From Candidatus Babeliales bacterium (GTDB lineage: Bacteria > Babelota > Babeliae > Babelales > RVW-14): a stretch of DNA of 64,000 bases. This document shows positions 12,676 to 64,000 of the stretch, piece after piece. The translations under genes were made by a program, and so were the position numbers. Position 1 is the stretch's first letter, and every line of letters starts with the position of its first letter. The stretch covers positions 118,718 through 182,717 of the forward strand of contig JAIERW010000001.1 in assembly GCA_019746485.1 (NCBI GenBank). The letters run 5' to 3'. The notes below the pieces were generated by a model, which was not told the origin of the DNA, made no database searches, and saw only the letters and a list, made by a program, of their open reading frames with translations.

Positions 12676-12679
12676 TTAC

Positions 12680-24962: not shown

Positions 24963-24972
24963 CCCACCACTT

Positions 24973-25737: not shown

Positions 25738-25804
25738 GACACTTACTCGCAATACATCATATGAAATAGTTAAACAAAAAGAGAAATGGGACGAGAACAA
25801 TACC

Positions 25805-26347
25805 CTATTCATACATTTTTTGCAACACTACTCGCACATAATTTAAAGCGATAAAAGGCAAAACAGCGACAAGAATCATCGACTGCGGGCCTTTCCAAGC
25901 AAACAGAAATGCCGCAAACGTAGCCAGCAACAAGATGCAGGAAGCACGCACTACGCGCTCACGCGGCGCACCAGGCAGGCCAACAAAACCGGCCGGCGAG
26001 TAAATTGTTTGCAAACAGCCAACAATAAAAAGCCATAAAAAAAGCGTAGCATACAAAAAGTGGGCGTAAATATTTTGCAACCAGTCGATTTCAAGCAAAA
26101 ACATGCACGCACCACCAAGTAAAAAGCAGTGGATGGCCAACATGAACGATTGTTCAGTTTTTTTGGCATGAAGCGATACAACGATATAAACAAGCGAGAG
26201 AAGCCCACCAATCTCAAAAGCATGCTCCCAGTTGCCCAAAAAGCGAAATGCCCAGACAAAAGCAATGAGTGGCAAAACATTGGCAATAAACATTAAGCGG
26301 TCATTAAAAAACTTTGTAATCATGCTGGTTCCTACAATAAATCTCAA
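25805..26347 (-). CDS. Integral membrane protein (about 6 TM)
   Basis: Hydrophobic segments throughout; start uncertain. Confidence 0.65.
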   Translation of the reverse strand: MRFIVGTSMITKFFNDRLMFIANVLPLIAFVWAFRFLGNWEHAFEIGGLLSLVYIVVSLHAKKTEQSFMLAIHCFLLGGACMFLLEIDWLQNIYAHFLYATLFLWLFIVGCLQTIYSPAGFVGLPGAPRERVVRASCILLLATFAAFLFAWKGPQSMILVAVLPFIALNYVRVVLQKMYE

Positions 26348-26427
26348 AATAACAAAACTATCTTTTCATAGTGGTACCAAAACAGTACAAACTTGTAAAA
26401 ATAATCTTTTCGTTGTATCTATTTCTT

Positions 26428-27696: not shown

Positions 27697-28780
27697 ATGG
27701 AAAATTTTTGCACAAGATTATCCAGACATATCGCTGACGGTTGCTTTCCCGCGCTCATGGCCGGGTTCTCTGTACCATCATCACGCAGAAAATTTAGAAA
27801 AAGAGCAGTTAAAAAATTGTAAGTTTGTTGCACTTAAAGCCTTTGGCGCTGGCAATGAAGTTCGCTATGGCTACTACCCCAGCGGCTTGATGAGCATTAT
27901 GCGCAACTTTAAGCCCGACATAATTCACGTTGAGCAAGGCGACAACGCACTCAGCCTTTTTCAAAGCATTATTTTTGCTAAATTGTTTTGCCGAAAAGCA
28001 AAGTTGTCATTTTTTACCTGGGTCAACTGGCAGCACAAATTTTCTCTCAAGTACCGCATGTTCTGGGGCTGGATAGAAAAATTTAACCGTTTCTTTACCC
28101 ACGGCGCTATTGCCGGCAATCAGGATGCACAAAAAATATTGGCAGAAAAAGGCTTTGTCAAAACAACAACCGTATGCCCACAGCTGGGTATCAACCTCAA
28201 AACGTTTAAGCCCGCACAGGTTGAGCACCATCGCCACCGCTACATTGGTTACATTGGCAGAATTGTTGAAGAAAAAGGCGTTATGCTGCTCGCACAAGCA
28301 TTCCATTCGCTGTATAGCTTGTTCCCCGACTGGCGGTTAATTTTTATTGGCTCGGGGCCCTTTGAAAAACAACTCATCGATTATGTCATTACGCACAAAC
28401 TGATTGATGTCGTTGAATTTCGCGACCCCATCACGCACGACAAAGTTCCCAACGCGCTTTCGTTTATTGATATTTTAGTGCTGCCATCGTACGACACTAA
28501 CCACTGGAAAGAGCAATTTGGGCACGTTTTAATTGAAGCTATGGCCTGCAAAGTTCCCGTTATTGCAAGTTCTGCCGGGGAAATTCCCAACGTGGTAGCG
28601 CAAGCCGGCCTAATCTTTGAACAGAAAAATGAAAAATCATTAACCAGCTATTTGCACACACTCATGAGCGACGCACAACTGCGCAATCAACTCGGAGAAA
28701 AAGGATATCAGCGAGTAAAAAATCATTATTCGCATCAAGCAATTGCCAAAACAACACATGACTTTTGGCAATCTCTTTAA
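27644..28780 (+). CDS. Glycosyltransferase family 4
   Basis: GYIGRIVEEKGV, WKEQFGHVLIEAMACKVPVI. Confidence 0.92.
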   Translation: MKILVISHTYITQINRDKWKIFAQDYPDISLTVAFPRSWPGSLYHHHAENLEKEQLKNCKFVALKAFGAGNEVRYGYYPSGLMSIMRNFKPDIIHVEQGDNALSLFQSIIFAKLFCRKAKLSFFTWVNWQHKFSLKYRMFWGWIEKFNRFFTHGAIAGNQDAQKILAEKGFVKTTTVCPQLGINLKTFKPAQVEHHRHRYIGYIGRIVEEKGVMLLAQAFHSLYSLFPDWRLIFIGSGPFEKQLIDYVITHKLIDVVEFRDPITHDKVPNALSFIDILVLPSYDTNHWKEQFGHVLIEAMACKVPVIASSAGEIPNVVAQAGLIFEQKNEKSLTSYLHTLMSDAQLRNQLGEKGYQRVKNHYSHQAIAKTTHDFWQSL

Positions 28781-28796
28781 AAAAAGGAGAGAGACT

Positions 28797-30197
28797 GTGA
28801 AGATTACCGTTATTGGTGCCGGGTACGTAGGCCTGGTCACCGCCGCTTGCTTTGCGCAAAAAGACAACGACGTAACGATTGTTGAAAACAATCAAGCAAA
28901 AATTACCGCGCTCTTGCAAGGCATTGTTCCGTTTTATGAACCGGGCCTGGAGCAGCTGGTTGCCAACGGCATCGCTGATAAAAAAATCAACTTTGTTGCC
29001 GACGTTGCGCAAGCACTTAAAAAAAACCAACCTGATGTTATTTTTTCCTGCGTTGGCACGCCATCACGCGAAGACGGCTCTGCCGATCTTTCATTTGTTT
29101 GGCAGGTAGCACAAGAAATTGGGCAGCAGATTAATGGGTACACGCTGGTTGTTAATAAATCAACGGTACCGGTAGGCACGGCAGAAAATGTTAAAGCAAT
29201 TATTCAAGAACAGCTGCGCCTGCGCTCTGCCAACGTGCCATTTGATGTTGCTTCTAACCCAGAATTTTTAAAAGAAGGCGATGCGCTGAGCGATTTTACC
29301 AATCCAGACCGCGTAGTTATTGGCGTTGATTCAGAAAAAGCGGCGCAGATTTTGGCACAACTTTATAAACCATTTTTAAAAAATCCCGAAGAACAACTAG
29401 TCTGCATGGACATTCCGTCGGCCGAGCTAACCAAATATGCTTCAAACGCCATGCTGGCAACACGCATTAGTTTTATGAACCAGCTGGCACTCTTGGCAGA
29501 CAAAGTGGGTGCTGACATTGAAGATGTAAAAAAAGGTATGGCTCTGGACCAGCGCATTGGCAAACATTTTCTTAATGCTGGAATTGGATACGGGGGTAGC
29601 TGCTTTCCCAAAGATGTTAAAGCACTTATTCACACCGGCAAAGAGCACCACCTACCCATGACCTTAATACAAGAAGTTGATGCCGTAAATATGCAGCAGC
29701 GCCAACTTTTTTTTAATAAAATAATCGACTTTTATGGCGATACTATTGTCAACAAACAGGTTGGCATTTGGGGGCTTGCTTTTAAGCCAGAAACTGACGA
29801 CATTCGCTGCGCACCAGCTATCGACATTATTGCCCAGCTCATTGCCCATGGCGCACAAGTAATTGCCTACGACCCAGTTGCCACCAGCAACATGCAACAG
29901 CTTTTCAAAAACACGGTTACCTTTGCTCAATCGGCCCAAGAAGTAGTTAAAGCAGCAGACTTTTTAATTATTCTAACCGAATGGCACGAGTTTAAAGCCT
30001 ACGATATTACCAAGCTTACCCAACTCAAAGACCAAGTTATCTTTGACGGCCGCAACTGCTTTGACCCCGAGCTTATGCAGGAACAGGGTTTTTGCTACAT
30101 CAATGTTGGCCGCAACGTGCACCATCAAAATACAAAGAAACTTTTTTTAACAAAAAAACAAGCACGCACGTGCCAACCACCATGCCAAACAGCCTAA
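28797..30197 (+). CDS. ugd: UDP-glucose 6-dehydrogenase
   Basis: IGAGYVGL, NKSTVPVGT, SNPEFLKEG, GYGGSCFPKD, GLAFKPETDD; GTG start after AGGAG. Confidence 0.95.
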   Translation: MKITVIGAGYVGLVTAACFAQKDNDVTIVENNQAKITALLQGIVPFYEPGLEQLVANGIADKKINFVADVAQALKKNQPDVIFSCVGTPSREDGSADLSFVWQVAQEIGQQINGYTLVVNKSTVPVGTAENVKAIIQEQLRLRSANVPFDVASNPEFLKEGDALSDFTNPDRVVIGVDSEKAAQILAQLYKPFLKNPEEQLVCMDIPSAELTKYASNAMLATRISFMNQLALLADKVGADIEDVKKGMALDQRIGKHFLNAGIGYGGSCFPKDVKALIHTGKEHHLPMTLIQEVDAVNMQQRQLFFNKIIDFYGDTIVNKQVGIWGLAFKPETDDIRCAPAIDIIAQLIAHGAQVIAYDPVATSNMQQLFKNTVTFAQSAQEVVKAADFLIILTEWHEFKAYDITKLTQLKDQVIFDGRNCFDPELMQEQGFCYINVGRNVHHQNTKKLFLTKKQARTCQPPCQTA

Positions 30198-31402
30198 AAA
30201 AAAAGATCTTATTTGTTCATCACGGCAAAGGACTGGGCGGCGCACCGCTCAGCCTGCTCTACCTGGTCAAAGGGCTTGATCCTGAAAAATACCAAGCCGA
30301 AGTTCTTTTTTTGCACAACTCAGACGCCCTACAACTTTTTAAAGAGCACGGCATCACCTGCCATGGCCCCGTCAACCGGCACGACTTTGCTCATACAAAA
30401 ATTTGGTGGTTCCGGTGGTACCATGCCCTCTCGCTGGCACGAGCGTGTCTGGATACCCTGAAAACAATACACTCAATTGCCCGCCATTGGCTGGAACTAA
30501 TAAAGCCAGACCTGGTACACTTGAACACGAGCTCACTTATTGCCTGGGGCAAAATTGCTCACAAAATTGGCATACCAGTTGTTTGGCACATCCGCGAGCC
30601 ACTGGCACCTGGGTACCTGGGCGCACGCAGGGCACTCATCAAGCACAGCGTTGAGCATTACGCAGCAGCAATTGTACCCATTTGCAACAACGACGCCCTG
30701 CCCTGGCACCACAACCCCAAAACGCATGTTGTGTACAACGCCGTTAACCAAACCGTTTTTGATGCCAACTTAAACCCACATGATTTTCTGGAATACCACC
30801 AGCTCGATACCTACTCACCAAAAATTTTATTTGTGGGCGGTCTTTCGCAAGAAAAAGGGACCTTGGTTTTATTAAACATTTTTGAAAAAATTTTGACGCG
30901 CGTGCCACAAGCCCAACTCGTGATTGCCGGGTACTTCGACTTGCAAAGACCTGGCACTCTAAACCCAAAACGCTTCATGCCATCAGCACAGTTTAAGCGT
31001 GCGGTCAGCACGCAATTAAAAAAAGTTAAACAATCGGTTCATCTTTTGGGCGCTATCAAAACAGTACCTGCTGCCATGGCAGCGGCTGATGTTATTGTCT
31101 TTCCAGCAACGGTTGGCCACTTTGCTCGCCCAATTATTGAAGCCGGTTTTATGAAAAAGCCAGTTGTTGCTTCTCAACTTGCCCCACTTGACGAACTGAT
31201 TATCGACAAAAAAACAGGATACCTGATTGCACCTGAAAATATTGACGAGTGGGCCAGCAAAATCAGCCTGTTGTTACTCGATAAAAATAAACAAAAAGCT
31301 ATGGGCCAAGCAGGGTTTGATTTTTGTTCACAAACATTTAGCCTGCCCAGCCAAATTACCAAAATTCAAAAAATTTATAACCAGCTTTTAAAGGAACAGT
31401 AA
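30182..31402 (+). CDS. Glycosyltransferase family 4
   Basis: GGAPLSL, VHLNTS, VWHIRE, HFARPIIEAGFMKKPVVAS. Confidence 0.88.
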   Translation: MPNSLKKKILFVHHGKGLGGAPLSLLYLVKGLDPEKYQAEVLFLHNSDALQLFKEHGITCHGPVNRHDFAHTKIWWFRWYHALSLARACLDTLKTIHSIARHWLELIKPDLVHLNTSSLIAWGKIAHKIGIPVVWHIREPLAPGYLGARRALIKHSVEHYAAAIVPICNNDALPWHHNPKTHVVYNAVNQTVFDANLNPHDFLEYHQLDTYSPKILFVGGLSQEKGTLVLLNIFEKILTRVPQAQLVIAGYFDLQRPGTLNPKRFMPSAQFKRAVSTQLKKVKQSVHLLGAIKTVPAAMAAADVIVFPATVGHFARPIIEAGFMKKPVVASQLAPLDELIIDKKTGYLIAPENIDEWASKISLLLLDKNKQKAMGQAGFDFCSQTFSLPSQITKIQKIYNQLLKEQ

Positions 31403-32214
31403 TGTCGAGGCACAACACCGCCAAAGAATCGGTTGCGCGCTATTGGAACCAGGCAAGCTGCGGCACCGAATTTATTGAAGAAATAAAACATTCACGAGAG
31501 TATTTTGAAGCGATTGAGCAATTTCGTTACACCATTGAACCTGAAATATTTGCATTTGCGCAGTTTACCCGATTTCACGGCAAAAAAGTGCTTGAGGTTG
31601 GTGTTGGCGCCGGGACCGACTTTTTGCAGTGGGTGCGCGCAGGCGCTCAAGCTTACGGCGTAGACTTAACACACGAAGCGGTTACCAATGTTTTACATCG
31701 CTTAGCAACCTACAACGTTGCTGCCTGCGATGTACAGGTTGCCGATGCTGAAAAGCTCAACTTTGCCGACAATAATTTTGACTTGGTTTACTCATGGGGC
31801 GTTATTCACCACTCGCCAGACCCGGTGCAGTGCCTGCGTGAAATTGTACGCGTCACAAAGCCAGGCGGCAGCATAAAAATTATGGTTTACAACCGTCGCT
31901 CTCTTTTTGCTTTCTATCAATATTTGCAACACGGCCTGTTGCGTGGTAAGCCTTTTGCGAGCATGAAAAAAATATTGGCACAGCACCAAGAAAGCCCGGG
32001 AACGCAGGCTTATACCTTTAAAGAAATTAAAAATATCTTAAAAGATTTCCCGGTACGCATTAACAAGCTCCAGGCAAGCACCACCAGCCATGATTTGCTG
32101 TACTACAAAAAAAGTAAGTTTATTAAAGCGTGCGCTTATATTGCTGCGTGCTTAAGCGGCTGGGATCGGCGGGGCTGGTTTATGACACTGGATCTTACGA
32201 AAAGAGAAGATTAA
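31402..32214 (+). CDS. Class I SAM-dependent methyltransferase
   Basis: VLEVGVGAGTD, ADAEKL, FDLVYSWGVIHHSP. Confidence 0.92.
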   Translation: MSRHNTAKESVARYWNQASCGTEFIEEIKHSREYFEAIEQFRYTIEPEIFAFAQFTRFHGKKVLEVGVGAGTDFLQWVRAGAQAYGVDLTHEAVTNVLHRLATYNVAACDVQVADAEKLNFADNNFDLVYSWGVIHHSPDPVQCLREIVRVTKPGGSIKIMVYNRRSLFAFYQYLQHGLLRGKPFASMKKILAQHQESPGTQAYTFKEIKNILKDFPVRINKLQASTTSHDLLYYKKSKFIKACAYIAACLSGWDRRGWFMTLDLTKRED

Positions 32215-32660
32215 GAAGGACGCATTGTTTCTAGAATTTTCTTGATAACCACAATATATTTTGCCATTTTTGTTGCAATAAGATTTGCAATTTCTTCTTT
32301 ATAAATGTGCGATGCTTCGTTTCGACTATCAAGCATTTCCAAGCATATTTCTACATCATCAGGTGATAAAAGTAGCACTTCCAAGCTCGCTCGAAAAACA
32401 TCCCGTGGACCACCTTGAACAGTTACATCATGATATAGTTCCATATACAGACGAACATATTTCCACAAAGAATCAAATGTATAATTAAATCGTGTAATTA
32501 GTGAATCACGATACGTCAAAAAACGACGCTCATATTTCTCATCGTCAGCATCTACAATGTTGTCAAAATCATTATAATCTTCGTAAGCATAAATTAACGT
32601 CTGTGCGGCTTGCTCCAAACGCTGGTATTTATATTGTATTTTGCCACTATCTTTGAACAT
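32211..32660 (-). CDS. HEPN ribonuclease toxin (HI0074/HepT-like)
   Basis: RDSLITRFNYTF..LWK and RNEASHIY (Rx4HxY). Confidence 0.85.
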   Translation of the reverse strand: MFKDSGKIQYKYQRLEQAAQTLIYAYEDYNDFDNIVDADDEKYERRFLTYRDSLITRFNYTFDSLWKYVRLYMELYHDVTVQGGPRDVFRASLEVLLLSPDDVEICLEMLDSRNEASHIYKEEIANLIATKMAKYIVVIKKILETMRPS

Positions 32661-38094: not shown

Positions 38095-38517
38095 ATGAAA
38101 TGGTCAGAATTTTCTTTTATGCTCAAACCATCATCTTTGGGCGGCGTTGGCGTGTTTGCCGTGCATGATATCCCGGCGGGAACCCTACTTTTTAATAAAA
38201 ACTTTGAACTGAGAACCATGAAAATAGCAGATGTTCCTGAGGCGTTGCGGCGATACTGCATTTACACCAGCGACACAGAATGCTTGTGCCCTGAGCGGTT
38301 TGATCGCATGGAAATTGGTTGGTACATCAATCATTCTGACACACCCAACATTGCAAAAAAGATCGATGATCAAAACCCCGACTTGCCAGCTTCAGTTGAT
38401 AGCATTAAAGCTCGTACCGTTTATGCCATTAAAGATATTAAATCTGGTGATGAAATTTTGATTGATTATAACTATCTTAATGAACCGGAACATTTGAAAG
38501 AAGATTATTATAAATAG
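38095..38517 (+). CDS. SET-domain protein (putative lysine methyltransferase)
   Basis: GVGVFAVHDIPAG, YINHSDTPN, AIKDIKSGDEILIDY. Confidence 0.9.
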   Translation: MKWSEFSFMLKPSSLGGVGVFAVHDIPAGTLLFNKNFELRTMKIADVPEALRRYCIYTSDTECLCPERFDRMEIGWYINHSDTPNIAKKIDDQNPDLPASVDSIKARTVYAIKDIKSGDEILIDYNYLNEPEHLKEDYYK

Positions 38518-46437: not shown

Positions 46438-47109
46438 CTAGCTAAGCTTTTGGTAACGATGCGTTACTTTGCCCACAACACGGAAATTATCTTTACCACG
46501 AATCAAGGCCACAGGCGGGTGCTTGTGGTTGACTGATTCAAGCACAATAAAATCTTCCATGTAGGTAACTTGCAAAATCCCTTTGATAGGGTTTTCGTTG
46601 CCGTATTCAACGGCAGCAATATCACCAGAGCGAGTCCACGTTTCAGGAGAGATAATCAAATAATCTCCTTTTACAAACGTTGGCGCCATAGCGTTGCTTT
46701 CAACATTTAAGCAAAACATTGAATCATCAGAGCTATTAAAAACTGGCACAAAAATATCTTTGTAGCCCGTTGTTACCTGCGTCAACTGATTGTTGTAGGG
46801 AGAAGGATTTGACGGAATGTCACCCATCACCGGAACAATTTTGAGTTGAAGGTCAACTGCAGTTGTTTCAGGAATTTTGACCGTGGTGTCTACATTGTCG
46901 GTTCTGCTTCGACGTTGTGCAAACAAATCGACAGGATGAATATCAAACGCATTAGCAAGTTTTTTTAACGCGTCCTCATTCCAACGGCGCGTACCATTTT
47001 TGATATGCGTCAAATAACTTTCGGACATACCGGTCTTTTCTGCAAGAACTTTGGTAGTCCACCCTCGTTCCCTCAGCAACTCTTTAACCCGTAACTCTGT
47101 TGATGACAT
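46438..47109 (-). CDS. XRE-family HTH plus S24-like (LexA/CI-type) transcriptional regulator
   Basis: LRERGWTTKVLAEKTGMSESYL HTH; C-domain PTFVKGD.LII.P, GDIAAV, LESVN, VVGKV; AAGGAG RBS before 47109. Confidence 0.85.
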   Translation of the reverse strand: MSSTELRVKELLRERGWTTKVLAEKTGMSESYLTHIKNGTRRWNEDALKKLANAFDIHPVDLFAQRRSRTDNVDTTVKIPETTAVDLQLKIVPVMGDIPSNPSPYNNQLTQVTTGYKDIFVPVFNSSDDSMFCLNVESNAMAPTFVKGDYLIISPETWTRSGDIAAVEYGNENPIKGILQVTYMEDFIVLESVNHKHPPVALIRGKDNFRVVGKVTHRYQKLS

Positions 47110-47352
47110 AAATACTCCTTTCCACATAATGTAGCCAAGACAAAGATTATGTAGTGTTAACTCGACAGCCTAGCCATATAAATCTGTTAAAATAATATAA
47201 ACCATGTCAAATAGAAATGCTATCAAAAATTCAAGATGAATGAGAAAAAAAAATGTTTCTTTGTGACAATTTTGTTCCAAAACTAATAATTTTTTTTTAA
47301 ACTCGCTCAAAGACTAAGATAGTTTGAGCAAAAAACATGAGAGATAAAAGCT

Positions 47353-48615
47353 ATGATGAAGTTTATACGCATATTTTTTTTAACACTTTTCGCGGTTATC
47401 AGCATTTCAATTATCACGGCTCTTGCCTATACAAACATACTGGTCGGCCAAGCTCAACAGTTTTCCAAAAAAACGAGCAAAAACCCTGGGGGCAATAAAT
47501 CCTCAAAGAAAATATTTATGATAACCGGTGAGGTTTCGGGCGATAAACTTGGCGCCTGGTACCTGCAAAAAATTAAAGAACAAAGAATTGCCGTTGAGTG
47601 CCACGCACTGGGACAAAAGTTTTTAAAGGCTCAGGGCGCACAAATACTTGAAGGCTTTGACGAGCTCTATATTGGCAATGGGCTTTTGTCACTGGCACTC
47701 ACGCTACCGCGCCAGCTTAAGCACTTCAACCGCCTGGTTGAGTACGTTTTAACTAACAACTTTGATGAAGTGGTGCTTATTGACTTTCCACTCATCAACA
47801 TCCCATTTGCGCGCGCGCTCAAAAACCACAAACCAGATATCAACATTACTTTTATTGCACCACCAGAGCTCTGGTTTTGGGGCAGTTGGAACATTGACGA
47901 ATTTTTAAAAGCATATTGCGACAACATTATTGTTTTGTATCCGCACGAAGTTGCCTGGTACCAATCCATTGGTATGCAAACTACCTGGCTTGGCTACCCG
48001 TACCTTGATGAGTTTGAGCCGTATCTACAAAACACACGTGACAAAAAGCCAACCATTGCCCTGCTTCCCGGCTCGCGAGCTGGCGAGCTAAAAACCATGA
48101 TGCCCATTTTTGTAAAGTTTATAAAACAATTCTCACAACAGTTCCCACAAGCGCACTATCTATTTCCCATTGCGTCATCGTTTCAACCCAGCGCGATACA
48201 TGATTATTTAGACAAAGCAGGCATCCCAACCAACATTACTTCAATCATTCAAAACGAAGAAGCAAAAAAAGATGCGCTGAGCACCTGCTGCCTTGCTATC
48301 AGCAAGCCGGGCACCATTACGCTTGAACTAGCGTTACTGGGCGTACCAACCATTGTTACCTACAAAGTTTCATGGCTCTCTCATAAAATCCTTAAAACAT
48401 TCGTCAACCCAACGCACATAAGCCTGCCCAACCTGCTCACCGGCAAAGAACTATGTATTGAGCTGCTGCAAGACGAATGTAACGCAACAGCACTTGGTAA
48501 ACAAGCAGCTTTGTTGTATACAAGCTTTCTTGAGAGCAGCTCGCTGTACCAACGCAAGCTGTATGAACTTGATGAATTTAGAAAACTTTTTGTGAGCCAA
48601 GCTCAGAAAATTTGA
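47353..48615 (+). CDS. lpxB: Lipid-A-disaccharide synthase
   Basis: ITGEVSGDKLG, LIDFP, PPELWFW, ALLPGSR, KPGTITLELALLGVP, ISLPNLL; lies upstream of rnhB. Confidence 0.88.
   Translation: MMKFIRIFFLTLFAVISISIITALAYTNILVGQAQQFSKKTSKNPGGNKSSKKIFMITGEVSGDKLGAWYLQKIKEQRIAVECHALGQKFLKAQGAQILEGFDELYIGNGLLSLALTLPRQLKHFNRLVEYVLTNNFDEVVLIDFPLINIPFARALKNHKPDINITFIAPPELWFWGSWNIDEFLKAYCDNIIVLYPHEVAWYQSIGMQTTWLGYPYLDEFEPYLQNTRDKKPTIALLPGSRAGELKTMMPIFVKFIKQFSQQFPQAHYLFPIASSFQPSAIHDYLDKAGIPTNITSIIQNEEAKKDALSTCCLAISKPGTITLELALLGVPTIVTYKVSWLSHKILKTFVNPTHISLPNLLTGKELCIELLQDECNATALGKQAALLYTSFLESSSLYQRKLYELDEFRKLFVSQAQKI
48493..48602 (+). repeat. 110-bp direct repeat, copy 1 (3' end of lpxB)
   Basis: 104/110 identical to 49362-49471 by manual alignment. 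Confidence 0.93.
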
Positions 48616-49034
48616 AGCTCTTGCTTCATTTTTTGAAGAAGCTGAGACATCAGCTGATAGTACCCAGCAACATGGTCAGCAATTTGTGCTGCAACGTCTT
48701 CTTGGTAGGCGTGCGCCGTCATGTTTCGATCATTAACCGAAGCCAAAAGTTGCTCGTACTGATCTTCATTGATCAAGTAAACGTCCAACGCTTGCTGAAT
48801 AACTTTTTTTGAACTTACCGGTAATTCAATACCATGGCACTCCGCAATAAACTCGCGAATGGTCTTCCAAAACATATCAGTGCAATATTCAAAGCGTTTA
48901 ATCAAAGAATCTCTGAAAAAAACGTAATCTTCGTGAGCTTCTGACGTCTTGCCATGTTTCACCATCGCAAGATGCAAAGTCTTTAATGCCTTCTCAAGCT
49001 GTTCTAATTTTTTTGTTATTTTTTCTTTGCCCAC
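48603..49034 (-). CDS. HEPN ribonuclease toxin (HI0074/HepT-like)
   Basis: RDSLIKRFEYC..MFWK and RNMTAHAY (Rx4HxY). Confidence 0.87.
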   Translation of the reverse strand: MGKEKITKKLEQLEKALKTLHLAMVKHGKTSEAHEDYVFFRDSLIKRFEYCTDMFWKTIREFIAECHGIELPVSSKKVIQQALDVYLINEDQYEQLLASVNDRNMTAHAYQEDVAAQIADHVAGYYQLMSQLLQKMKQELQIF

Positions 49035-55946: not shown

Positions 55947-56501
55947 TTACTTCTCCGGCTTTACGTGGCCATCCAACAACGTAAACGTACCCAAAAATGG
56001 ATTCATTTTGAGGCTTACCTGCGACACTTTTTTATCTTCCTGACGCGAAAGGTGCAGCAAAACATCTTGCACCAGGCCATCAGAAATAACATAACAAAAA
56101 GCTTCACGGCTTTGAGCAAAGAGCTCACGCTTACCCACAAAAACAGCATTGACCGCAATTTCTGGCGCCACATCGTAACGCGTTTCAAAAAAATCTGATG
56201 CAACTTGGTTATAAATTTTTTTCTGAGGATTTTCTGGATCGGTCCGCTCGTCTTCAACCACCACAAACGTGGTCGTCTCTTTGGTTGCCTTAATGCGCAA
56301 GCGGTGTACGCGCTGGGTGCAGATAGCTTCTTGACGAGCAAAAGAGACGAGATTATTCATCTCGTCTACAATATTTGGCCACTCAATTGAGGGGCTGCGC
56401 CGCATAAGACGCGGAATTGTCATGGTTGCTATTATGCCTATCAGCACAATAACAACCAACATTTCAATCAGCGTAAATGCGTAAGGTTTTTTCATGATCA
56501 A
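55947..56501 (-). CDS. gspH: Type II secretion minor pseudopilin GspH-like
   Basis: KPYA|FTLIEMLVVIVLIGII, FARQEAI. Confidence 0.75.
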   Translation of the reverse strand: MIMKKPYAFTLIEMLVVIVLIGIIATMTIPRLMRRSPSIEWPNIVDEMNNLVSFARQEAICTQRVHRLRIKATKETTTFVVVEDERTDPENPQKKIYNQVASDFFETRYDVAPEIAVNAVFVGKRELFAQSREAFCYVISDGLVQDVLLHLSRQEDKKVSQVSLKMNPFLGTFTLLDGHVKPEK

Positions 56502-56939
56502 TTAAGATCCTGATGCAATCCATTTATTTTGAGGAGTATCTTGACCTTCATCACTGCCGTACGAAAAGACTTCATACGTTTTATATTTGCTCGTAAAAAC
56601 TTGTGGCGGTCTGTTATAAACATAATCGTTGCTCCACGGGTCTTTAGGTACTTCAGTTTGACCTTCAAGATATGGGCCATTCCACTTTGGATTATTGTTT
56701 ATATTTTGAACCAACGCTTGCAGGCCTTCGCGCTGACTTGGCAAAGCGCCCATGTCCATACGATAGTCAGCTAATGCTGCTTTAAATGAAGTAACCATTG
56801 ATTTTGCAGCACTCGTTTGGCCACCAGTCATTAACTTCATAACGTTTGGACCAACCAATGTTGCCAACAAACCAATAATGAACACCACAACCAAAATTTC
56901 GATCATCGAAAATGCACTACTTTTTTTTGCAAAATTCAT
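56502..56939 (-). CDS. gspG: Type II secretion major pseudopilin GspG
   Basis: SSA|FSMIEILVVVFIIGLLA, EGLQALV, KWNGPYL, VPKDPW..DY, SYGSD; GAGG RBS before 56939. Confidence 0.92.
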   Translation of the reverse strand: MNFAKKSSAFSMIEILVVVFIIGLLATLVGPNVMKLMTGGQTSAAKSMVTSFKAALADYRMDMGALPSQREGLQALVQNINNNPKWNGPYLEGQTEVPKDPWSNDYVYNRPPQVFTSKYKTYEVFSYGSDEGQDTPQNKWIASGS

Positions 56940-56972
56940 ACATACCTCGTTATTAAAATAATCATACATTTG

Positions 56973-58196
56973 CTACAAATTAGTAATATCACCCATCTTG
57001 AGCACTGGCAAGAAGATGGACATGATAATAAACCCAACAATAAGCCCCATCACCACGGTCATGATAGGACCAATCTTTGCCGTCAGGCCGTCAGTCAACT
57101 CTTTCAGCTCAACGTCGTAGTCGTGCCCAACGGTCAGCAGCATAGCACCAAGCTTGCCCGACTCTTCCCCCGTGCTAATCATATAGCTTGCAATACTGGG
57201 AAAAATGCCCGTCTGCTTAAGATACTTTGCTATCTTACCTTCTTTTATAATTTTATCACGCGCATCGCGCAATTTCTGTACCAGTACTCGATTTTCGACA
57301 ATATTACACACAATGTCAAGCGCCTCGGCCAGGTTAACGCCGCTGTTAATCAGCATGCCCAGCGTTTTGCTAAATTGCACAATAGCTTTGGTACGCGAAA
57401 AATAAGCAGTCACGGGAAACTTTAATAAGATCTCATCAAACTTGTAGGCACCACTTTTGGTAGATTTCCAATACGTAAAGAGCACCACAATCAACAGCAA
57501 GCCACCTGCAATTTCAAGAAAGTGGTGCACCAAAAGATTCGACAGTGCCACCAAAATTTTGGTTGGAACAGGCAAGTCAGTCTTCATGCGCTTAAACATA
57601 TCTTGCAACCGCGGTACCAACACCGTCAATAGCCCCACTACCACTAAGCCAGCAAATGACAACATCATAATTGGTTGCGACATTGCTTTCTTTACTTTTT
57701 TGCGCGTCTCTTCAGCACGTTCTAAATAATCGGTCAAGCTTTCTAAAATTGAATCTAAGTTACCGCTCGCTTCACCAGCGCGCACCAGCTGCACATAAAC
57801 ATTGGAAAAAACTTTGGGATATTTAGAAAGCTCTTTTGCAAACGGCTCACCAGATTTAACACCGTCGCGCACGCGAATAAGCAAGCGGTTAAAGCGCCCT
57901 TCAAATTGTTCAATCAACAACTCAAGTGCTTGCAACAGCGGGATACCCGCACGCAACAACACCGCCAGCTGCTTGGTAAACAACACAACAACTTTTACTT
58001 CAATAGGCCTTTCAAAAAGCATTTTGAGCGAAAAGCCACCGGCAGCAGCTGAGCCAGCCGTTATCTCTTTAATATTGACCGGCATGAGCCCCTGGCCTTG
58101 CAAAATTTCTTTGGCTGCGTGCAGAGACACTGCGTCGATGGTACCCGTCACACGGCCGCCCCGCCGATTAAAAGAATCATACTTATAAAGAGGCAT
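56973..58196 (-). CDS. gspF: Type II secretion inner-membrane platform protein GspF/PilC
   Basis: FTKQLAVLLRAGIPL, VRAGEASGNL, MISTGEESGKL. Confidence 0.92.
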   Translation of the reverse strand: MPLYKYDSFNRRGGRVTGTIDAVSLHAAKEILQGQGLMPVNIKEITAGSAAAGGFSLKMLFERPIEVKVVVLFTKQLAVLLRAGIPLLQALELLIEQFEGRFNRLLIRVRDGVKSGEPFAKELSKYPKVFSNVYVQLVRAGEASGNLDSILESLTDYLERAEETRKKVKKAMSQPIMMLSFAGLVVVGLLTVLVPRLQDMFKRMKTDLPVPTKILVALSNLLVHHFLEIAGGLLLIVVLFTYWKSTKSGAYKFDEILLKFPVTAYFSRTKAIVQFSKTLGMLINSGVNLAEALDIVCNIVENRVLVQKLRDARDKIIKEGKIAKYLKQTGIFPSIASYMISTGEESGKLGAMLLTVGHDYDVELKELTDGLTAKIGPIMTVVMGLIVGFIIMSIFLPVLKMGDITNL

Positions 58197-58343
58197 TGCT
58201 CACGTGCTCCTCAACTCGTTTGAAATTCATATGGTAATTTCTTGCAAAGGTAGATAGTTCTCTGGTATGTTTTCGTAATTAATACACTATTTTAGCGTAT
58301 TGTTACCAACCGCCAACCCCACTTTAGCAGAAAGGATTCCTGA

Positions 58344-59483
58344 ATGAAAAGAAAAAAACTCTTTTTTCTTTCTCTTCTTTTCACAGCTCTTTTCTTACCG
58401 CTGCACTCACCACTGCTGCTTGCCCGCAAAACATCAATAAAAAAAGTAAAGCACCTACCCAAGCAACTCGACTTTGACGATGTTTTAGGAAAAGATGTAA
58501 CGCCCTTGCAGTTTAGTACCAACAGCATTCGCAACTACTTTCGCAGCTTAAACTGCTCGCAACTTGCCTTGCGAAGCAGAACCAAGAAAGCAAAAGAGCA
58601 CGACTTTAATTTATCAATGAATAAATTTATTAAAGAAATGTACAACACACGAAGCTATGCTCAAACACTCTCGCAAGACGGAACCAACATTGTTGAATTT
58701 TTAACACTTGCGCACGAGCTGAATCTGGGGGCCCATGAAGTTTATGTTGGCATGCGCTTGTTTAACCAAAAGTTAAAAGCGTGGGACTGCGAACTGGTTG
58801 ATAACACCGTTGTCTTGCAAATTTTGCCCGCTTTTGCCGAAGCACTACCGCACTATTTGAACAAAAAAATAGCAAAAAATAATAAGAAAAACGATTTGCG
58901 CTTTATCCGCCGCCACACCGAAAGCTTGCTCATTTCGCGCTTTACCGAAAAGTTTAGATCGTTTAAAAAAGACCCAGACGTCTTTTTATCTGATCTTTCG
59001 TACGACATTGCAGCAAGTATTAAAAAGCAGCTGCGCATTCACGAGCAAAAGTCGGCACAGGAAGAAGAAGAGCATGAAGTACGCTCACGCCTGCGCCAAC
59101 AAACGGTTCGCTTTTTAGAAACCATGCTTACCAAACAAATTTGGAATTTTAGATCGCCAGAAGGCGTGTGGGATTCTTTCTTAACCGTTGCCAACGACCT
59201 ACAACTACTTGGTACTAACGGCGTTATTGACCACATGGACGATCTTGACGGCCTGCTGTGGGACCACACCAACCGCTTTTGCTATTATCTCGACCTGACC
59301 GGCGGCGCCCAGCCAATGGACTTTTTTGACGAAATTGAACAAGATCTTGCTAATGGCGTTATCTACTTTTTAGAAGCTGATGAGCAAGATGATGGTATAA
59401 AAACTAAAAAAGAAACATTGCTTGATGCACTGGCTCAAGCAAAAACGAAAGCTATTGCTTTTGAACGCGGCATTATTTGCTAG
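58344..59483 (+). CDS. Secreted hypothetical protein
   Basis: Signal MKRKKLFFLSLLFTALFLPLHS; 379 aa; divergent from gspF. Confidence 0.75.
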   Translation: MKRKKLFFLSLLFTALFLPLHSPLLLARKTSIKKVKHLPKQLDFDDVLGKDVTPLQFSTNSIRNYFRSLNCSQLALRSRTKKAKEHDFNLSMNKFIKEMYNTRSYAQTLSQDGTNIVEFLTLAHELNLGAHEVYVGMRLFNQKLKAWDCELVDNTVVLQILPAFAEALPHYLNKKIAKNNKKNDLRFIRRHTESLLISRFTEKFRSFKKDPDVFLSDLSYDIAASIKKQLRIHEQKSAQEEEEHEVRSRLRQQTVRFLETMLTKQIWNFRSPEGVWDSFLTVANDLQLLGTNGVIDHMDDLDGLLWDHTNRFCYYLDLTGGAQPMDFFDEIEQDLANGVIYFLEADEQDDGIKTKKETLLDALAQAKTKAIAFERGIIC

Positions 59484-59513
59484 TTTTAACCTTTTCTTCA
59501 AGGAGTTTTTTTA

Positions 59514-59957
59514 ATGAAGAATTTTTTTAAGAATTTACAGCACGCAGCACTCACTATATTTGTTGTAACTACTCTTGGTAACCAAGCACAAGCTGCTGCC
59601 AACAACACTACTATTGCCAATGCAAAAAATGCGCTTAACAGCGTAGTATCACAAGTAGAATCGTCACTAAAAAGAGTTGGTTATACCGGCTCTACAATAT
59701 CTGCGATACTGGCAAACTTAACAGACTTTGGTATCAGTGGCCCAAAAAACATAACAAATCCCAATGCCGATGCCGTTACCCAAGCTCAGCAAATTGCTAA
59801 AGATTTAAGAACTCAAATAATTATTAATGATAGCAAGTTGGCTTATACAACCAACCAAAATATACAAGCCGTAATTGCCGCCGCTGCGCCAACAGGTACT
59901 CTGGGTGTACTTGCCAACCAATATGAAACAGCAATCAATGGCATAACTGCTTCATAA
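59514..59957 (+). CDS. Secreted helical paralog 1 (unknown family)
   Basis: AAGGAG RBS, signal peptide ending AQA, VGYTG..LANLT.F..GP. Confidence 0.8.
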   Translation: MKNFFKNLQHAALTIFVVTTLGNQAQAAANNTTIANAKNALNSVVSQVESSLKRVGYTGSTISAILANLTDFGISGPKNITNPNADAVTQAQQIAKDLRTQIIINDSKLAYTTNQNIQAVIAAAAPTGTLGVLANQYETAINGITAS

Positions 59958-59976
59958 AAATTTTATAGTTTTTTTA

Positions 59977-60019
59977 AAAGAGAGGCTGCTTTAGACAAAT
60001 TCTAAAGCAGCCTCTCTTT
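59977..60019. terminator. Long hairpin, probable terminator
   Basis: Perfect 19-bp stem AAAGAGAGGCTGCTTTAGA-caaat-TCTAAAGCAGCCTCTCTTT. Confidence 0.8.
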
Positions 60020-60100
60020 GCTTTACAGCCCTTATTTTTACAACCAAAAAGCCTTAAAAATGAGTTTGGGGGATTGTGGAAATATTTTCTAATAGAATTA

Positions 60101-60130
60101 TTGACTTTGTTTATTATGAGTCTTTATAAT
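60101..60130 (+). promoter_or_regulatory. Putative sigma70 promoter for paralogs 2-5
   Basis: TTGACT-18 bp-TATAAT. Confidence 0.55.
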
Positions 60131-60187
60131 AAGTAATAACACAAAAAATTACGTATTAATTGTAAAAAATACCCAAAAGGAGATTTT

Positions 60188-60652
60188 ATGAATAGTGCCA
60201 AAAGCGTACGCTTTACCACCCTTGCCCTGCTCATTGCAGCAGCAATTACCAGCCAGGCTCAGCCTGCAGCAACAAGTACCAACATTACTGTCGCCACCAA
60301 TGCTTTTAACAGTATAATTTCAAGAACAAATAGCAGTCTCAAAAACGTTGGTTATACCGGTACAACTACCGCACAGGCTCTAGCAAACTTAACAGCTTTC
60401 ATTCAGAATGGTCTGAATATAGACCTACAAAATGCAAACCAAACAGCAGTTGCACAAGCTCAAACGGCAGCAAAAAATCTTAAAACACAGATTGCGCTTG
60501 ATAAAGGTTATCTTGACAGCAAAACCGCCATCAACATTCAAAAGGTAATAAGCGATACCGCATCAACCGGCGCCTTGGGTAAACTTTCGATAGGTTTTTT
60601 TCAGTCAGTGAGAGCTATAACAATGCCACAAGCAGCGCCAATACAACCATAA
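60188..60652 (+). CDS. Secreted helical paralog 2
   Basis: AAGGAG RBS, signal peptide, SSLKNVGYTG..LANLTAF. Confidence 0.8.
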   Translation: MNSAKSVRFTTLALLIAAAITSQAQPAATSTNITVATNAFNSIISRTNSSLKNVGYTGTTTAQALANLTAFIQNGLNIDLQNANQTAVAQAQTAAKNLKTQIALDKGYLDSKTAINIQKVISDTASTGALGKLSIGFFQSVRAITMPQAAPIQP

Positions 60653-60667
60653 TCCTGGAGATTTATT

Positions 60668-61576
60668 ATGAACTTTGTAAAAAATTTACAGATGACTGTC
60701 CTTTCCGTACTTGTTGCAACAGCTAGTGCTTGTCAGCTCAATGCAGCTGCATCGCTTGAGTCGTTGCAAGAAAGTGCTAACAATAATCAAGATAAGCTCA
60801 ACATGCTCTGCTCGAAAGCCGACAACTCACTCAATCTTTGCGGCGTAGTTCCCGTTACTATTGTGGCGCGTACAACTAACTGCCAAGAAACCATCAATTT
60901 TTTAGAAACTTTTATTGAGCAAGGACCACGCTCAACCAACCTTAACCCGCAAGCAATGAGCGCAGCACAAAGCTCCGCACAGGTCTTGCGCAACTTTTTA
61001 CAAACTTCGTATAACGAACTTCAGGCCATACAGCAAGAGCTTCAGCAAAATCCCGACGAACAAGAACGCGACGCTCTTCAACTCCGCATTAACAAACAAG
61101 TAAACTCATTCAGCACAAGAAGCTCATCTGGGCCTGCAACAACCATTTTAATAGACCCAAGGCCGTTGAGCAATTTCCAATCTGATGTTGATGCAATGGT
61201 AAGCGGAAGAATGACCAAGCCATATGGCCTGCCGACACCCACAATACCAAGGACATTTACATTTGACAGATTGATCAGCGACGTAAAGATAGCCCTCGAC
61301 AAATGTTCTTACGGCTACCCAATGGTCAAAGTAGCAAATGAATACGACGCCACCATGTTCTTTCTTAATTACTTCATTGAAAATGGCCCAGGACTTTCTC
61401 CAGACAACACTCACAAGCCAAATAAAAAGGTGACAAAGAAAACCAAACAAATCGCTCAAAAACTTAAATCAGGGCTCGAGCAAGCTAAGCAAGACAATGT
61501 TGTTAGCCAAGAATTACGCCAGCTTGTTGATGAGTTTAAAAACTTAATCACAAAAATTGCGCCAACACAACATTAA
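60668..61576 (+). CDS. Secreted helical paralog 3 (two domain copies)
   Basis: FLETFIEQGP and FLNYFIENGP repeats. Confidence 0.8.
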   Translation: MNFVKNLQMTVLSVLVATASACQLNAAASLESLQESANNNQDKLNMLCSKADNSLNLCGVVPVTIVARTTNCQETINFLETFIEQGPRSTNLNPQAMSAAQSSAQVLRNFLQTSYNELQAIQQELQQNPDEQERDALQLRINKQVNSFSTRSSSGPATTILIDPRPLSNFQSDVDAMVSGRMTKPYGLPTPTIPRTFTFDRLISDVKIALDKCSYGYPMVKVANEYDATMFFLNYFIENGPGLSPDNTHKPNKKVTKKTKQIAQKLKSGLEQAKQDNVVSQELRQLVDEFKNLITKIAPTQH

Positions 61577-61609
61577 TCGAAATTTTACTTTAATAAGAAA
61601 GGAAAGATA

Positions 61610-62044
61610 ATGATAACATTCAAAAGGATATCAATCTCCATGCTCGCTGTTGTTGCAGCGCTCACCATAAATACCCACGTTCAAGCGTCAGATTATGACA
61701 CTGCAGAAAGAAAACTACAAATAGTTCTTGTCACCATGACTAATGCTATTCTTAAATATTACAAAGAAAGGCCTCTGACCAGTGAGCAGACAAGGGGCTA
61801 TGTAGCCACTACCTGCCTTTCTCCTCAGGGAACGAATGGTGCCTTCGGGCCAATCAACCGATTCACAGAGCAATTCAAAGATGAAAAAAATCCGGCGTAC
61901 ACCGTGGCAAAACAGCTATCGAGAAAGTTGAGACAAGTTATTTATACCTACAACATAAACAGTGATTACGCAGGAACAGTAGCAGCCGTACCAGAACTTA
62001 TGAACTTGATAAAACAACTTCAAACGGAACTTGCAAAGCTGTAA
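61610..62044 (+). CDS. Secreted helical protein, probable divergent paralog 4
   Basis: Signal ending VQA; C-terminal ELMNLIKQL resembles ELRNLSKQF. Confidence 0.75.
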   Translation: MITFKRISISMLAVVAALTINTHVQASDYDTAERKLQIVLVTMTNAILKYYKERPLTSEQTRGYVATTCLSPQGTNGAFGPINRFTEQFKDEKNPAYTVAKQLSRKLRQVIYTYNINSDYAGTVAAVPELMNLIKQLQTELAKL

Positions 62045-62087
62045 CACGCCCGATAATCAAAAATAGGTAAAAAACAGGAGATTTATT

Positions 62088-62576
62088 ATGAATTTTTCTA
62101 AAAACTTAAAACTTGCCGCCCTTGCTCTACTCGTTGCAACAGCAGTTGGTAGCGAATTGAACGCTCTAGACATTATGCCTAAGCCAGCAATTATTACCGG
62201 CCCAGCGCAAAACGCAGTCAATAACATTATTGACGAAATACGAGTAGCTCTTGATAAATGCCGCACTGGCTACCCTATGGTCAAGGTAGCTTCCCGACGT
62301 GATGAGACTATGTTCTTTCTTGGGTGCTTTGTTAACAATGGCCCAGGCTTACCAAAAGGCACACAACGACGAGAAGGGAAAATTGCTCAAGCAAAAAATA
62401 TAGCAGGAAAGATAAAAACACTAATCGAATCTTATAATTCAACTCTGAAAAGCTCATCGGTCACCGCCAGCGAAACGCATAGAATAGAACAATCTGCAAC
62501 CAGCGGCGAGTTACGCAACCTTAGCAAGCAGTTTAAAAATTTAATTGCAGAAATCGCTCCATCACAAGGTTGGTAA
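62088..62576 (+). CDS. Secreted helical paralog 5
   Basis: ALDKC..GYPMVKVA...TMFFL..F..NGPGL and FKNLI.EIAP shared with paralog 3. Confidence 0.8.
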   Translation: MNFSKNLKLAALALLVATAVGSELNALDIMPKPAIITGPAQNAVNNIIDEIRVALDKCRTGYPMVKVASRRDETMFFLGCFVNNGPGLPKGTQRREGKIAQAKNIAGKIKTLIESYNSTLKSSSVTASETHRIEQSATSGELRNLSKQFKNLIAEIAPSQGW

Positions 62577-62588
62577 AAAAGTTTAGTT

Positions 62589-62622
62589 AAAAAAGGCACC
62601 GCAAAATTGCGGTGCCTTTTTT
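62589..62622. terminator. Bidirectional intrinsic terminator
   Basis: A6-GGCACCGCA-aaat-TGCGGTGCC-T6. Confidence 0.88.
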
Positions 62623-62633
62623 ATTTCTTACTT

Positions 62634-63350
62634 TTATTCTTGAAACCGCTGCACCACAACCGACCGCACACCCTGCGCATCCACAACTAATTCAAAATAA
62701 CTTTGCTGCGCGTAGCGCATAACCAACTCGCGGTCGTGACAAATAATCAAAACGGTAAGCCCAGTAGTCTGCACCAGATCATGTAAAAACGACATTACCA
62801 TCTCAGCATTTTGCTCATCAAGTGCCGCTGTTGGTTCGTCGAGCAACAAAATATTAGTCGACTTTTGTAGCGCCATCAATATTGCCAAAATTTGCCGCTG
62901 CCCACCAGAAAGTAAGTGTACCGGTTTTTTTATATCAATACCAAAGCGCTCTACAAAAGCTGGCACTGGCTTGTGGGCCGGCAACGCAGCCAAGCCGGGT
63001 TGTGACGGCAGATTAGCAAGGCGCAAGTTTTGTTCAAACGACAGTTGATCAGCCAGCATGACATCAAACTTTTGCTGAACCATATTAATGGTATTTAGTG
63101 CGTCGTATTGCTCTTTGCCCGTCGCTAGCATTTGCACGCTGCTCTCAACAACCACCGTGCCCTCAACAAGTTCTTGCTTTTCCAGCTTGCCGCGCAGCAA
63201 TCTAAACAGCGTAGATTTACCCGCGCCATTAAAACCTCTGATAAAATGAATGCGCCCTTTTTCAAAACTAACCGTTAAATCTTTGAAAAAGTCTGGCGCT
63301 TGTGGTGCAAATTTAAAATTAAGATTTTTAATTTCAAGTGCGTATGTCAT
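62634..63350 (-). CDS. ABC transporter ATP-binding protein
   Basis: GFNGAGKST, LSGGQRQ, LLLDEPTAALD, ICHD. Confidence 0.92.
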   Translation of the reverse strand: MTYALEIKNLNFKFAPQAPDFFKDLTVSFEKGRIHFIRGFNGAGKSTLFRLLRGKLEKQELVEGTVVVESSVQMLATGKEQYDALNTINMVQQKFDVMLADQLSFEQNLRLANLPSQPGLAALPAHKPVPAFVERFGIDIKKPVHLLSGGQRQILAILMALQKSTNILLLDEPTAALDEQNAEMVMSFLHDLVQTTGLTVLIICHDRELVMRYAQQSYFELVVDAQGVRSVVVQRFQE

Positions 63351-63353
63351 GGT

Positions 63354-64000
63354 TTAAACCCCCAAATCATTAACGTTTTTATTCGTGCGGCTGGTGCGAA
63401 AGCGGTTGATAACCATCAACAAAACCAGGAGCGACTGCATCATGGTAAAATATTTTAAATTAAAACCAACTTTGAGCAGCAGCTGCTGCAGCGCACAATA
63501 AACAACCAAGCCAACCAGCGGCACATTGACAGAAAATGAACGCACAAAAAAGCACAATGATTTTCCCAAAATAAGCGCCGTAATACAAAACAACGCCATA
63601 CCAAAACCAGCGTTAGTATCTACAAAGCCACTTGATTGTGCCACCAAATAGCCCGAAACACCGGCAAGCCCGTTGGCAAGTGCCACGCCAGTCAGCACCA
63701 CAAAGTTGGTAGAGATACCATAATTTTCGAAAAATTTTGGGTTGTAACCAAACACCGCGCATGCGTAACCAAGCTGTGTGCGTAACAACAAAAACAAACC
63801 AACCAGCAGCACCAAGCAGACCACCAGCAACATAATCAGCTCTGGATTTTTTACAAAATATTCAGAAATAACGAGCGGGTTACGCAAGCCACTCAGCGAG
63901 CGGTGCGCGTTGCCCAAAACAAATTGATTCACACCATGAAAAATACCGATCGTTAAAATGCTTGAAAGCAAGTGCGGCACGCGGCCGTACTGCGTCAGCA
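63354..64000 (-). CDS. ABC transporter permease, 5'-partial
   Basis: LLSSIL, RTQLG, LANGLAGVSGYL.AQ..GFVD...G.G; frame stays open to the window edge. Confidence 0.82.
   Translation of the reverse strand, partial: LTQYGRVPHLLSSILTIGIFHGVNQFVLGNAHRSLSGLRNPLVISEYFVKNPELIMLLVVCLVLLVGLFLLLRTQLGYACAVFGYNPKFFENYGISTNFVVLTGVALANGLAGVSGYLVAQSSGFVDTNAGFGMALFCITALILGKSLCFFVRSFSVNVPLVGLVVYCALQQLLLKVGFNLKYFTMMQSLLVLLMVINRFRTSRTNKNVNDLGV

Follow-up and report, generated by a model that had tools for sequence, protein, structure and literature searches.

Dependentiae (TM6) is a phylum of protist-dependent intracellular bacteria. In the excerpted text of the genome report on one of them, Chromulinavorax destructans (Deeg et al. 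2019, PMC6561590), signal peptides are given for 44% of coding sequences, and this signal-peptide set is described as enriched in ORFans and in putative effectors or host-modifying proteins. Here we analysed a stretch of 64,000 nucleotides (nt) from a member of the Babeliales (the window, G000:C37:118718-182717; source assembly G000, 1.26 Mb and 59% complete) and in it a tandem array of small signal-peptide proteins that lies close to gspF, a gene of the type II secretion system (T2SS) or type IV pilus. Compared with the C. destructans proteins as the excerpts present them, the array is alike in phylum, Sec signal, lack of a recognisable domain, narrow lineage and presumed host role, but it is a separate protein family, unrelated in sequence to anything so far described, and its fold, two subtypes, operon layout and evolutionary rates were worked out here.

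Two other groups of proteins offer comparisons. The usual substrates of the T2SS are small, soluble, Sec-dependent folded proteins. The array proteins are predicted to resemble them in Sec dependence, solubility and periplasmic folding, and they too are encoded in a genome with T2SS-like genes, but the genetic link between array and system is not conserved. Small all-helical bundles forming variable paralog families in a host-associated bacterium are also found in the OspC and PFam12 proteins of Borrelia (BBH37, PDB 8s2p). Those are lipoproteins, whereas a Cys at the equivalent position occurs in one array member only and there is no sequence similarity; the matches of the model of p162, the last gene of the array, to 8s2p (Z 7.3, root-mean-square deviation 4.3, 113 residues aligned) and to OspC (Foldseek E 0.22, template-modelling (TM) score ~0.3) are in the generic range.

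The array family is new but of a familiar kind, a lineage-specific exported accessory family typical of Dependentiae. Six open reading frames (ORFs) were found on the plus strand, divergent from gspF on the minus strand (p379, p147, p154, p302, p144 and p162; Table 1), as in an earlier account of the same DNA made from its letters (the sequence-only reading). BLASTP aligned p147 with p154 (type A) at 43% identity over 141 amino acids (aa) (E 3e-23), and p162 with the C-terminal half of p302 (type B) at 40% identity over 133 aa (E 4e-29). The two types were linked by profile hidden Markov models (HMMs) built from the mature parts, with signal peptides excluded, and run on the 4,013 G000 ORFs of at least 60 aa: a type A-only HMM picked up p162 (E 8.7e-8), a type B-only HMM picked up p147 (E 3.7e-6), and no further match was seen among these ORFs outside the array. 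In leave-one-out HMMs the N-terminal half of p302 scored E 2.7e-6 and 1.5e-7. For p144 the corresponding values were E 1.3-1.5, with an hhalign probability of 33.5% over 53 columns, and it was rejected as a paralog on sequence grounds; it fits by position, size and signal peptide alone. By sequence comparison, four genes with five domains (p147, p154, p302 twice and p162) thus form a proven family with a shared domain of ~120-130 aa, and the proposed set of five paralogs holds except for p144.

The motif previously noted as common to the copies agreed with the consensus of a MAFFT alignment of the mature parts. Three columns alone (G, F and G) are invariant, all of them inside the GY and F..NGP motifs, and no conserved residues of a catalytic type were seen in the family alignment. 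Since the invariant residues sit in turn motifs, a structural rather than a catalytic scaffold is suggested. Type A is without Cys and rich in Ala, Thr and Asn, and type B contains Cys. The mature isoelectric points are 8.3 and 9.9 for type A and 7.8 (p302) and 9.7 (p162) for type B, with an overall range of 7.8-10.0. The division into two subtypes is therefore upheld by Cys content and by Ala/Thr/Asn richness, and basicity, which had also been used to tell them apart, overlaps between the types.

Signal-peptide features were judged by a heuristic of our own rather than by SignalP or another trained predictor. By this measure all five array genes of the window and three genes of a congener (G124) encode a basic N-terminus, a hydrophobic core (mean Kyte-Doolittle value >=2.0 across 12 residues) and, at position -1, a small residue, so that the signal peptides noted before were recovered on every member. 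None of the mature parts has a transmembrane-like stretch (no run of 19 residues has a Kyte-Doolittle mean above 1.5). There is no lipobox in the family: a Cys is present in the signal region of p302 alone and the paralogs carry G, T or S there. The prepilin leader (G-F-x-x-x-E) was likewise missing, in that model TIGR02532 matched the neighbouring pseudopilin genes and none of the six proteins, whose N-termini are those of classical signal peptides. The secreted status of the array proteins is a prediction.

An AlphaFold2 model of mature p162, made from a nine-sequence alignment, is predicted with a mean local distance difference score (pLDDT) of 88.9 and a predicted TM score (pTM) of 0.83. 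The model consists of five helices (residues 12-30, 44-58, 70-95, 101-112 and 115-130) packed into a compact bundle, in agreement with the helical domain expected by the sequence-only reading; the GY and NGP loops contain single bridge residues. Modelling followed by Foldseek, a check which that reading had suggested, gave this confident bundle and generic helical matches alone: there were 0 matches in the PDB at E <=0.001 (best E 0.12). Exhaustive fold comparison with VIA, for which the tool itself treats Z under ~13 as uninformative for helical bundles, placed 2 of 48,161 chains at Z >=8, the top matches (Z 8.5) being coiled-coil and designed bundles, among them a Mis12 subunit and a designed three-helix bundle, again generic. 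In the ESM Atlas the best feature scores of p162 and p147 (0.81 and 0.82) were within the range of shuffled proteins, and structure matches fell under the bar. Pfam and NCBIfam gave sub-threshold noise only, and the mature-part profile (A3) found nothing better than E 0.29 among PDB sequences.

The distribution of the family is very narrow. Searching the family profile against 1.84 billion representative proteins, the database check proposed earlier, gave 5 hits, all of them proteins of the window or of G124, and a word-index search with p162 returned 2 proteins among 136 candidates, namely p162 itself and a 66%-identical hypothetical protein of G124. Given the lack of Pfam, NCBIfam and PDB-sequence matches, the generic fold matches and the lack of a relative outside one genus among the representatives, the family can be called undescribed, as had been supposed, and its diversified character is likewise upheld. 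In a six-frame search of 261 Dependentiae genomes it was present in two (G000, with 6 domain matches, all in the array, and G124, with 3), or in 1 of the 189 high-quality genomes. Copy number in the three congeners is thus 6 domain matches in 5 genes (G000), 3 genes (G124) and 0 in G123, a complete single-contig genome. When the A3 HMM was run on 127 ORFs downstream of p379 homologues in 30 loci the best value was E 0.014 (8.7 bits), so there appear to be no hidden relatives in other genera.

The order of genes in G124 is gspF, p379, three array genes (148, 153 and 163 aa) and the ABC transporter; p302 and p144 are without a counterpart. In G123 the array is replaced, between the same flanking genes, by two signal-peptide proteins of 399 and 409 aa on the minus strand (L014:8973-11420), and these have WD40-type Pfam hits (24.5 and 26.1 bits against the WD40 cut-off of 27) of the eukaryote-like beta-propeller type. 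In a FastTree phylogeny of nine domains the C-terminal domain of p302 falls outside the pair formed by p162 and its G124 ortholog (support 0.86), which indicates that the duplications are older than the split between G000 and G124, and p302 and p144 were most likely lost from G124. Gene conversion of recent date was also considered and ruled out, since no long identical DNA tracts were found between the copies; their best direct repeat, over the ribosome-binding site (RBS) and signal peptide, has 67 nt with 76% identity.

Rates of evolution were compared between G000 and G124, using the positional counterpart for p147 and orthologs for p154 and p162. The ratio of nonsynonymous to synonymous substitution rates (dN/dS) was 0.33 for p147 (47.6% identity, dS 1.04), 0.26 for p154 (77%) and 0.34 for p162 (66%), and 0.04-0.11 for the eight flanking genes with any substitutions (dS 0.37-0.81), so that the array genes evolve 3-8 times faster. 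Among 55 collinear ORF pairs (median identity 90.3%; three out-of-synteny best hits and seven ORFs with no hit were dropped) p147 ranked lowest, p162 sixth lowest and p154 fourteenth lowest. Other fast genes in this set include large signal-peptide proteins just downstream, and the array is thus fast, not unique.

We consider it the likeliest reading, at about an even chance (a probability of roughly 0.5), that the array proteins are accessory exported, non-enzymatic binding proteins at the symbiont-host interface. The family would be a genus-restricted one of small proteins, grown by old tandem duplications and placed in a variable accessory slot, with the conserved gspF/p379 pair on one side and an ABC-transporter operon on the other. 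Each product would leave the cytoplasm of this diderm bacterium by means of a cleavable Sec signal peptide of the signal peptidase I type, and the mature domain of 120-136 aa would fold as a compact soluble helical bundle in which the GY and F..NGP turn motifs are structural. Mature proteins may then act outside the cytoplasm as binding modules, either released or surface-associated; we infer export beyond the periplasm, by a route that could be the T2SS secretin, vesicles or neither, and binding to a specific host target. The accessory, host-adaptive role is suggested by fast evolution and by copy-number variation between close relatives, and the signal-peptide, eukaryote-like WD40-like proteins that likewise fill the slot in G123 also speak for it. 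The array is a well-delimited example, with old tandem duplication, two subtypes, a domain fusion, gain or loss among congeners, raised dN/dS and a confident small fold, and offers a tractable case of how obligate intracellular bacteria generate new host-interface proteins.

Several points weigh against this interpretation. Export, cleavage and host contact of the array proteins are predictions, and a generic helical bundle carries no functional information. A dN/dS of ~0.3 suits relaxed constraint and diversifying selection equally well, a site test being impossible with two sequences per gene. Absence from G123 means that the family is dispensable, which also fits a minor or redundant periplasmic role, and further copies may exist elsewhere in G000 given that the assembly is 59% complete. 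The RNA support described below comes from assembled contigs of one library that possibly contains DNA, in runs that were found with this stretch.

The proteins could instead reside in the periplasm or envelope and not meet the host directly, as Spy/CpxP-like chaperones or as envelope-stress or structural proteins. Such a role would agree with a Sec signal on small basic helical proteins that have neither a transmembrane segment nor a lipobox. Spy/CpxP proteins (LTXXQ, PF07813) are widely conserved and are like the array proteins in size, signal peptide, helical structure and basic character, and a Spy/CpxP cluster ranked first in the ESM Atlas structure search of p162, yet with a TM score of 0.38, under the tool's bar. 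There was no Pfam LTXXQ hit to the array at E <=1, and Spy/CpxP was not among the top VIA rows, which does not speak against a common fold. Housekeeping envelope proteins should moreover be conserved, whereas this family is confined to two genomes, being missing from 259 of 261 genomes including the complete congener, and evolves 3-8 times faster than adjoining envelope genes (MlaD-like and pseudopilin genes). We regard periplasmic residence as doubtful.

The locus has the layout of two transcription units (Table 1). The internal promoter and the closing terminators reported earlier were both recovered; the promoter is a consensus match only and is the best of 13 sites in the region, for which shuffled sequences gave a mean of 7.8 sites. 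The hairpins after p147 and p162, together with the promoter site, imply a first unit of p379 and p147 ending at the hairpin and a second unit in which the promoter would drive p154, p302, p144 and p162 up to the terminator. The common RBS context of p302 and p162 was also confirmed: an identical 16-mer, GGAGATTTATTATGAA, spans the RBS and start codon of both genes and occurs exactly twice in the 64 kb (at 60657 and 62077; 0.05 occurrences expected).

Table 1. Features of the array locus and its flanks (positions within the window)
Feature	Position	Strand	Evidence and remarks
gspG	56502-56969	-	TIGR01710 E 1.2e-30, above cut-off
gspF, T2SS/type IV pilus platform protein (context gene)	56973-58196	-	Pfam T2SSF E 2.2e-59
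p379, Dependentiae-wide hypothetical protein, first gene of unit 1	58344-59483	+	Signal-peptide-like N-terminus, all-alpha
p147, type A paralog	59514-59957	+	BLASTP to p154 E 3e-23; starts 30 nt after p379, no terminator between
Terminator-like hairpin, closes unit 1 after p147	59977-60019	+	19-bp stem, -32.8 kcal/mol, z -7.7, 0/200 shuffles as stable
Sigma-70-like promoter for unit 2	60101-60130	+	TTGACT-18-TATAAT, 11/12 matches; consensus match only
p154, type A paralog, first gene of unit 2	60188-60652	+	BLASTP and HMM
p302, two-domain member	60668-61576	+	N domain residues 1-165 (60668-61162), C domain residues 166-302 (61163-61576)
p144, same-size signal-peptide protein, membership unproven	61610-62044	+	Position, size, signal peptide
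p162, type B paralog, last gene of unit 2	62088-62576	+	BLASTP and HMM; basic, contains Cys
Bidirectional terminator, common to p162 and the convergent ABC-transporter gene	62588-62623	+	16-bp stem, -28.8 kcal/mol, z -8.0

A search of sequencing runs with the window matched 14 runs, from 7 studies. Of the sampled words, 76-87% were present in four DNA runs from drinking water, among which the source sample may be. Four runs were compared with window positions 56,000-64,000, having been found by means of this very stretch. A lake-water metatranscriptome (run X5) contains six zero-mismatch contigs, which cover the end of p379 through the start of p147 (59257-59555), p147, the 3' end of p144, p162 and the p162 terminator into the ABC-transporter gene; p154 and p302 are uncovered, and this is no evidence of silence. 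One or two exact contigs per run were also present at the p379/p147 junction and the N-terminal domain of p302 in run X6 and at p154 in run X9, the RNA status of both runs being a guess. The assembled contigs, from one library, hint weakly at expression of the array genes and at a common transcript for p379 and p147.

That the ORFs are decaying or spurious and without function is scarcely credible, even for an orphan family with fast evolution and no copy in one congener. Every frame is unbroken and has an RBS in the two genomes, between which the dS of collinear genes is ~0.5, and dN/dS values of 0.26-0.34 are well under 1; both observations speak for real genes. The confident fold prediction, the ordered arrangement of promoter and terminators and the exact-match contigs in an RNA library point the same way.

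Several paralogs of two subtypes that are kept together and co-transcribed, one of them (p302) a tandem fusion of two domains, could also be co-assembling subunits of one multi-component structure, such as a surface coat, a filament or an alpha-helical pore former, as the sequence-only reading had suggested. Tripartite alpha-pore-forming toxins are likewise encoded by adjacent signal-peptide paralogs. Components of the ClyA/Hbl/Nhe type are long helical bundles of about 300-400 aa with a hydrophobic membrane-insertion hairpin, whereas the array domains of 118-139 aa are far shorter, have no such hairpin (see the 19-residue means above) and gave no Pfam hit to such families. The gene set also differs between genomes, with 5 genes in G000 and 3 in G124. 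Nothing supports a filament, coat or pore-forming role, and we hold a joint assembly to be very improbable.

The sequence-only reading described the array as led by p379 and as tied to the T2SS through its divergent position from gspF. Neither part of this description was supported. Of 261 Dependentiae genomes, 252 have a homologue of p379, as do 188 of the 189 high-quality ones; p379 is a separate phylum-wide gene and not a member of the family. It is adjacent to and divergent from gspF in 10/10 close loci and 19/20 distant-family loci (29/30 in total; loci L013 and L015-L043), and the remaining distant locus stops at a contig end 570 bases beyond p379. The genes after p379 vary between genera. 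The conserved divergent partner of gspF is thus p379, and the array adjoins T2SS-like genes because it occupies a variable slot beside this conserved pair. Its position is kept where the family exists, but the genus can do without the family; no conserved genomic linkage is seen and nothing ties the array to the neighbouring secretion genes.

Homologues of p379 have a hydrophobic, signal-like N-terminus in 30/30 cases by eye and in 22/29 by a stricter heuristic. With a dN/dS of 0.04 between G000 and G124 the gene is under strong constraint. No Pfam domain was found, and the sources name the homologues "hypothetical protein" only (47 hits among 8,000 scored candidates). Its AlphaFold2 model, from a 30-sequence alignment, is all helical (pLDDT 83.7), with no Foldseek match at E <=0.001 and generic VIA matches to designed helical-repeat proteins (top Z 11.1); the best match of a profile search of PDB sequences (E 0.0084 over 61 residues) was judged not credible. 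Neither the array family nor the p379-gspF pairing is mentioned in the accessible parts of the full-text literature, and the orthologous-group tables of PMC4776705 may list the p379 group. Judged by its sequence and conserved position, p379 is a candidate for an unrecognised part or partner of the T2SS/type IV pilus machine of Dependentiae. Taken alone, the array adds another lineage-specific family of exported orphans to a phylum with export signals on about half of its genes, and the lead more worth following is the p379-gspF pairing, p379 being a candidate missing part of a poorly understood apparatus.

These results bear on whether the array proteins are dedicated T2SS cargo, coupled to the adjoining gsp genes and exported as folded bundles through the secretin. 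In both genomes that have the family the array adjoins gspF-p379, and p147 probably shares a transcript with p379, a gene in turn closely linked to gspF. The genus has gspF and gspG-K-like pseudopilins and, per genome (n=3), three secretin genes and two full-length T2SSE-type ATPases that lie outside the gsp run of the window. The conserved link is nevertheless that between gspF and p379, and the slot beyond it is occupied differently in G123 and in other genera. A crude heuristic detects signal-peptide-like N-termini on 528 of 1,070 G000 ORFs (49%), so that chance alone would readily place an exported gene beside gsp genes. With the same heuristic, 19/29 loci have such an N-terminus on the first gene after p379, which is no clear enrichment; the loci are kin and not independent, and a cargo slot after p379 was rejected on this count. 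T2SS substrates cannot be recognised by a sequence signal, and the present data are thus unable to confirm such a role; the comparative work on Dependentiae, in the sections available of PMC4776705, leaves undecided whether the system is a T2SS or a type IV pilus. Dedicated cargo status is in our view unlikely. A wider version, in which p379 would be a phylum-specific component or partner of the T2SS/type IV pilus, the position after it a cargo slot for lineage-specific exported clients (helical bundles here, WD40-like proteins in G123 and other signal-peptide arrays elsewhere) and the array a set of rapidly diversifying, T2SS-delivered host-binding effectors born in one genus, is a long shot.

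Tandem signal-peptide paralogs directly after p379 were observed in other genera as well (coordinates with p379 on the plus strand): four genes of 167-188 aa at L029:4906-7119, and two genes each at L030:4729-6386 (261-279 aa), L033:5188-7856 (441-448 aa) and L028:4946-8354 (412-505 aa). None of these sets is related to the array family. Downstream of p379, many Dependentiae families also share a conserved exported protein of ~416-447 aa whose N-terminal motif is '...F(R/P)INxFRPYDINLR...' (L026, L027, L029-L032, L039, L040 and L042), mostly followed by a protein of 600-790 aa.

On the other side of p379, gspF heads a minus-strand run of gspG, a gspH-like gene and others, with four further pseudopilin-like genes besides gspG. 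A DNA block of ~1.95 kb that takes in gspG and gspF and extends across the intergenic region into the first ~50 nt of p379 (~56450-58400) is 100% identical between G000 and G124, and its flanks on both sides are merely 81-96% identical per 100 nt. Complete protein identity (100%) between these genomes was also seen for a helix-turn-helix/S24 repressor-like gene (46438-47127) and for further genes on another contig, and the two strains seem to co-occur in the same DNA runs. The identical gspG-gspF block reflects either recent recombination between the G000 and G124 strains or chimeric assembly.

Elsewhere the window contains diderm envelope genes (LpxB, E 2.3e-64; LptF/G-like; MlaD-like) and a nonulosonic-acid-type sugar cluster (5748-16053) with a DegT aminotransferase, NeuB (9899-10996), a CMP-sugar cytidylyltransferase (9182-9886), a PseB/Polysacc_synt_2-like dehydratase and a GDP-mannose dehydratase. 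The NeuB cluster, whose glycan the Ser/Thr-rich members might accept according to the sequence-only reading, is ~47 kb from the paralog array, and glycosyltransferases follow beyond it at 21335-31402. Two small NTase_sub_bind (HEPN-type) proteins (32211-32660 and 48603-49034) are possibly halves of toxin-antitoxin-like pairs, and a eukaryote-like SET-domain protein of 140 aa is encoded at 38095-38517.

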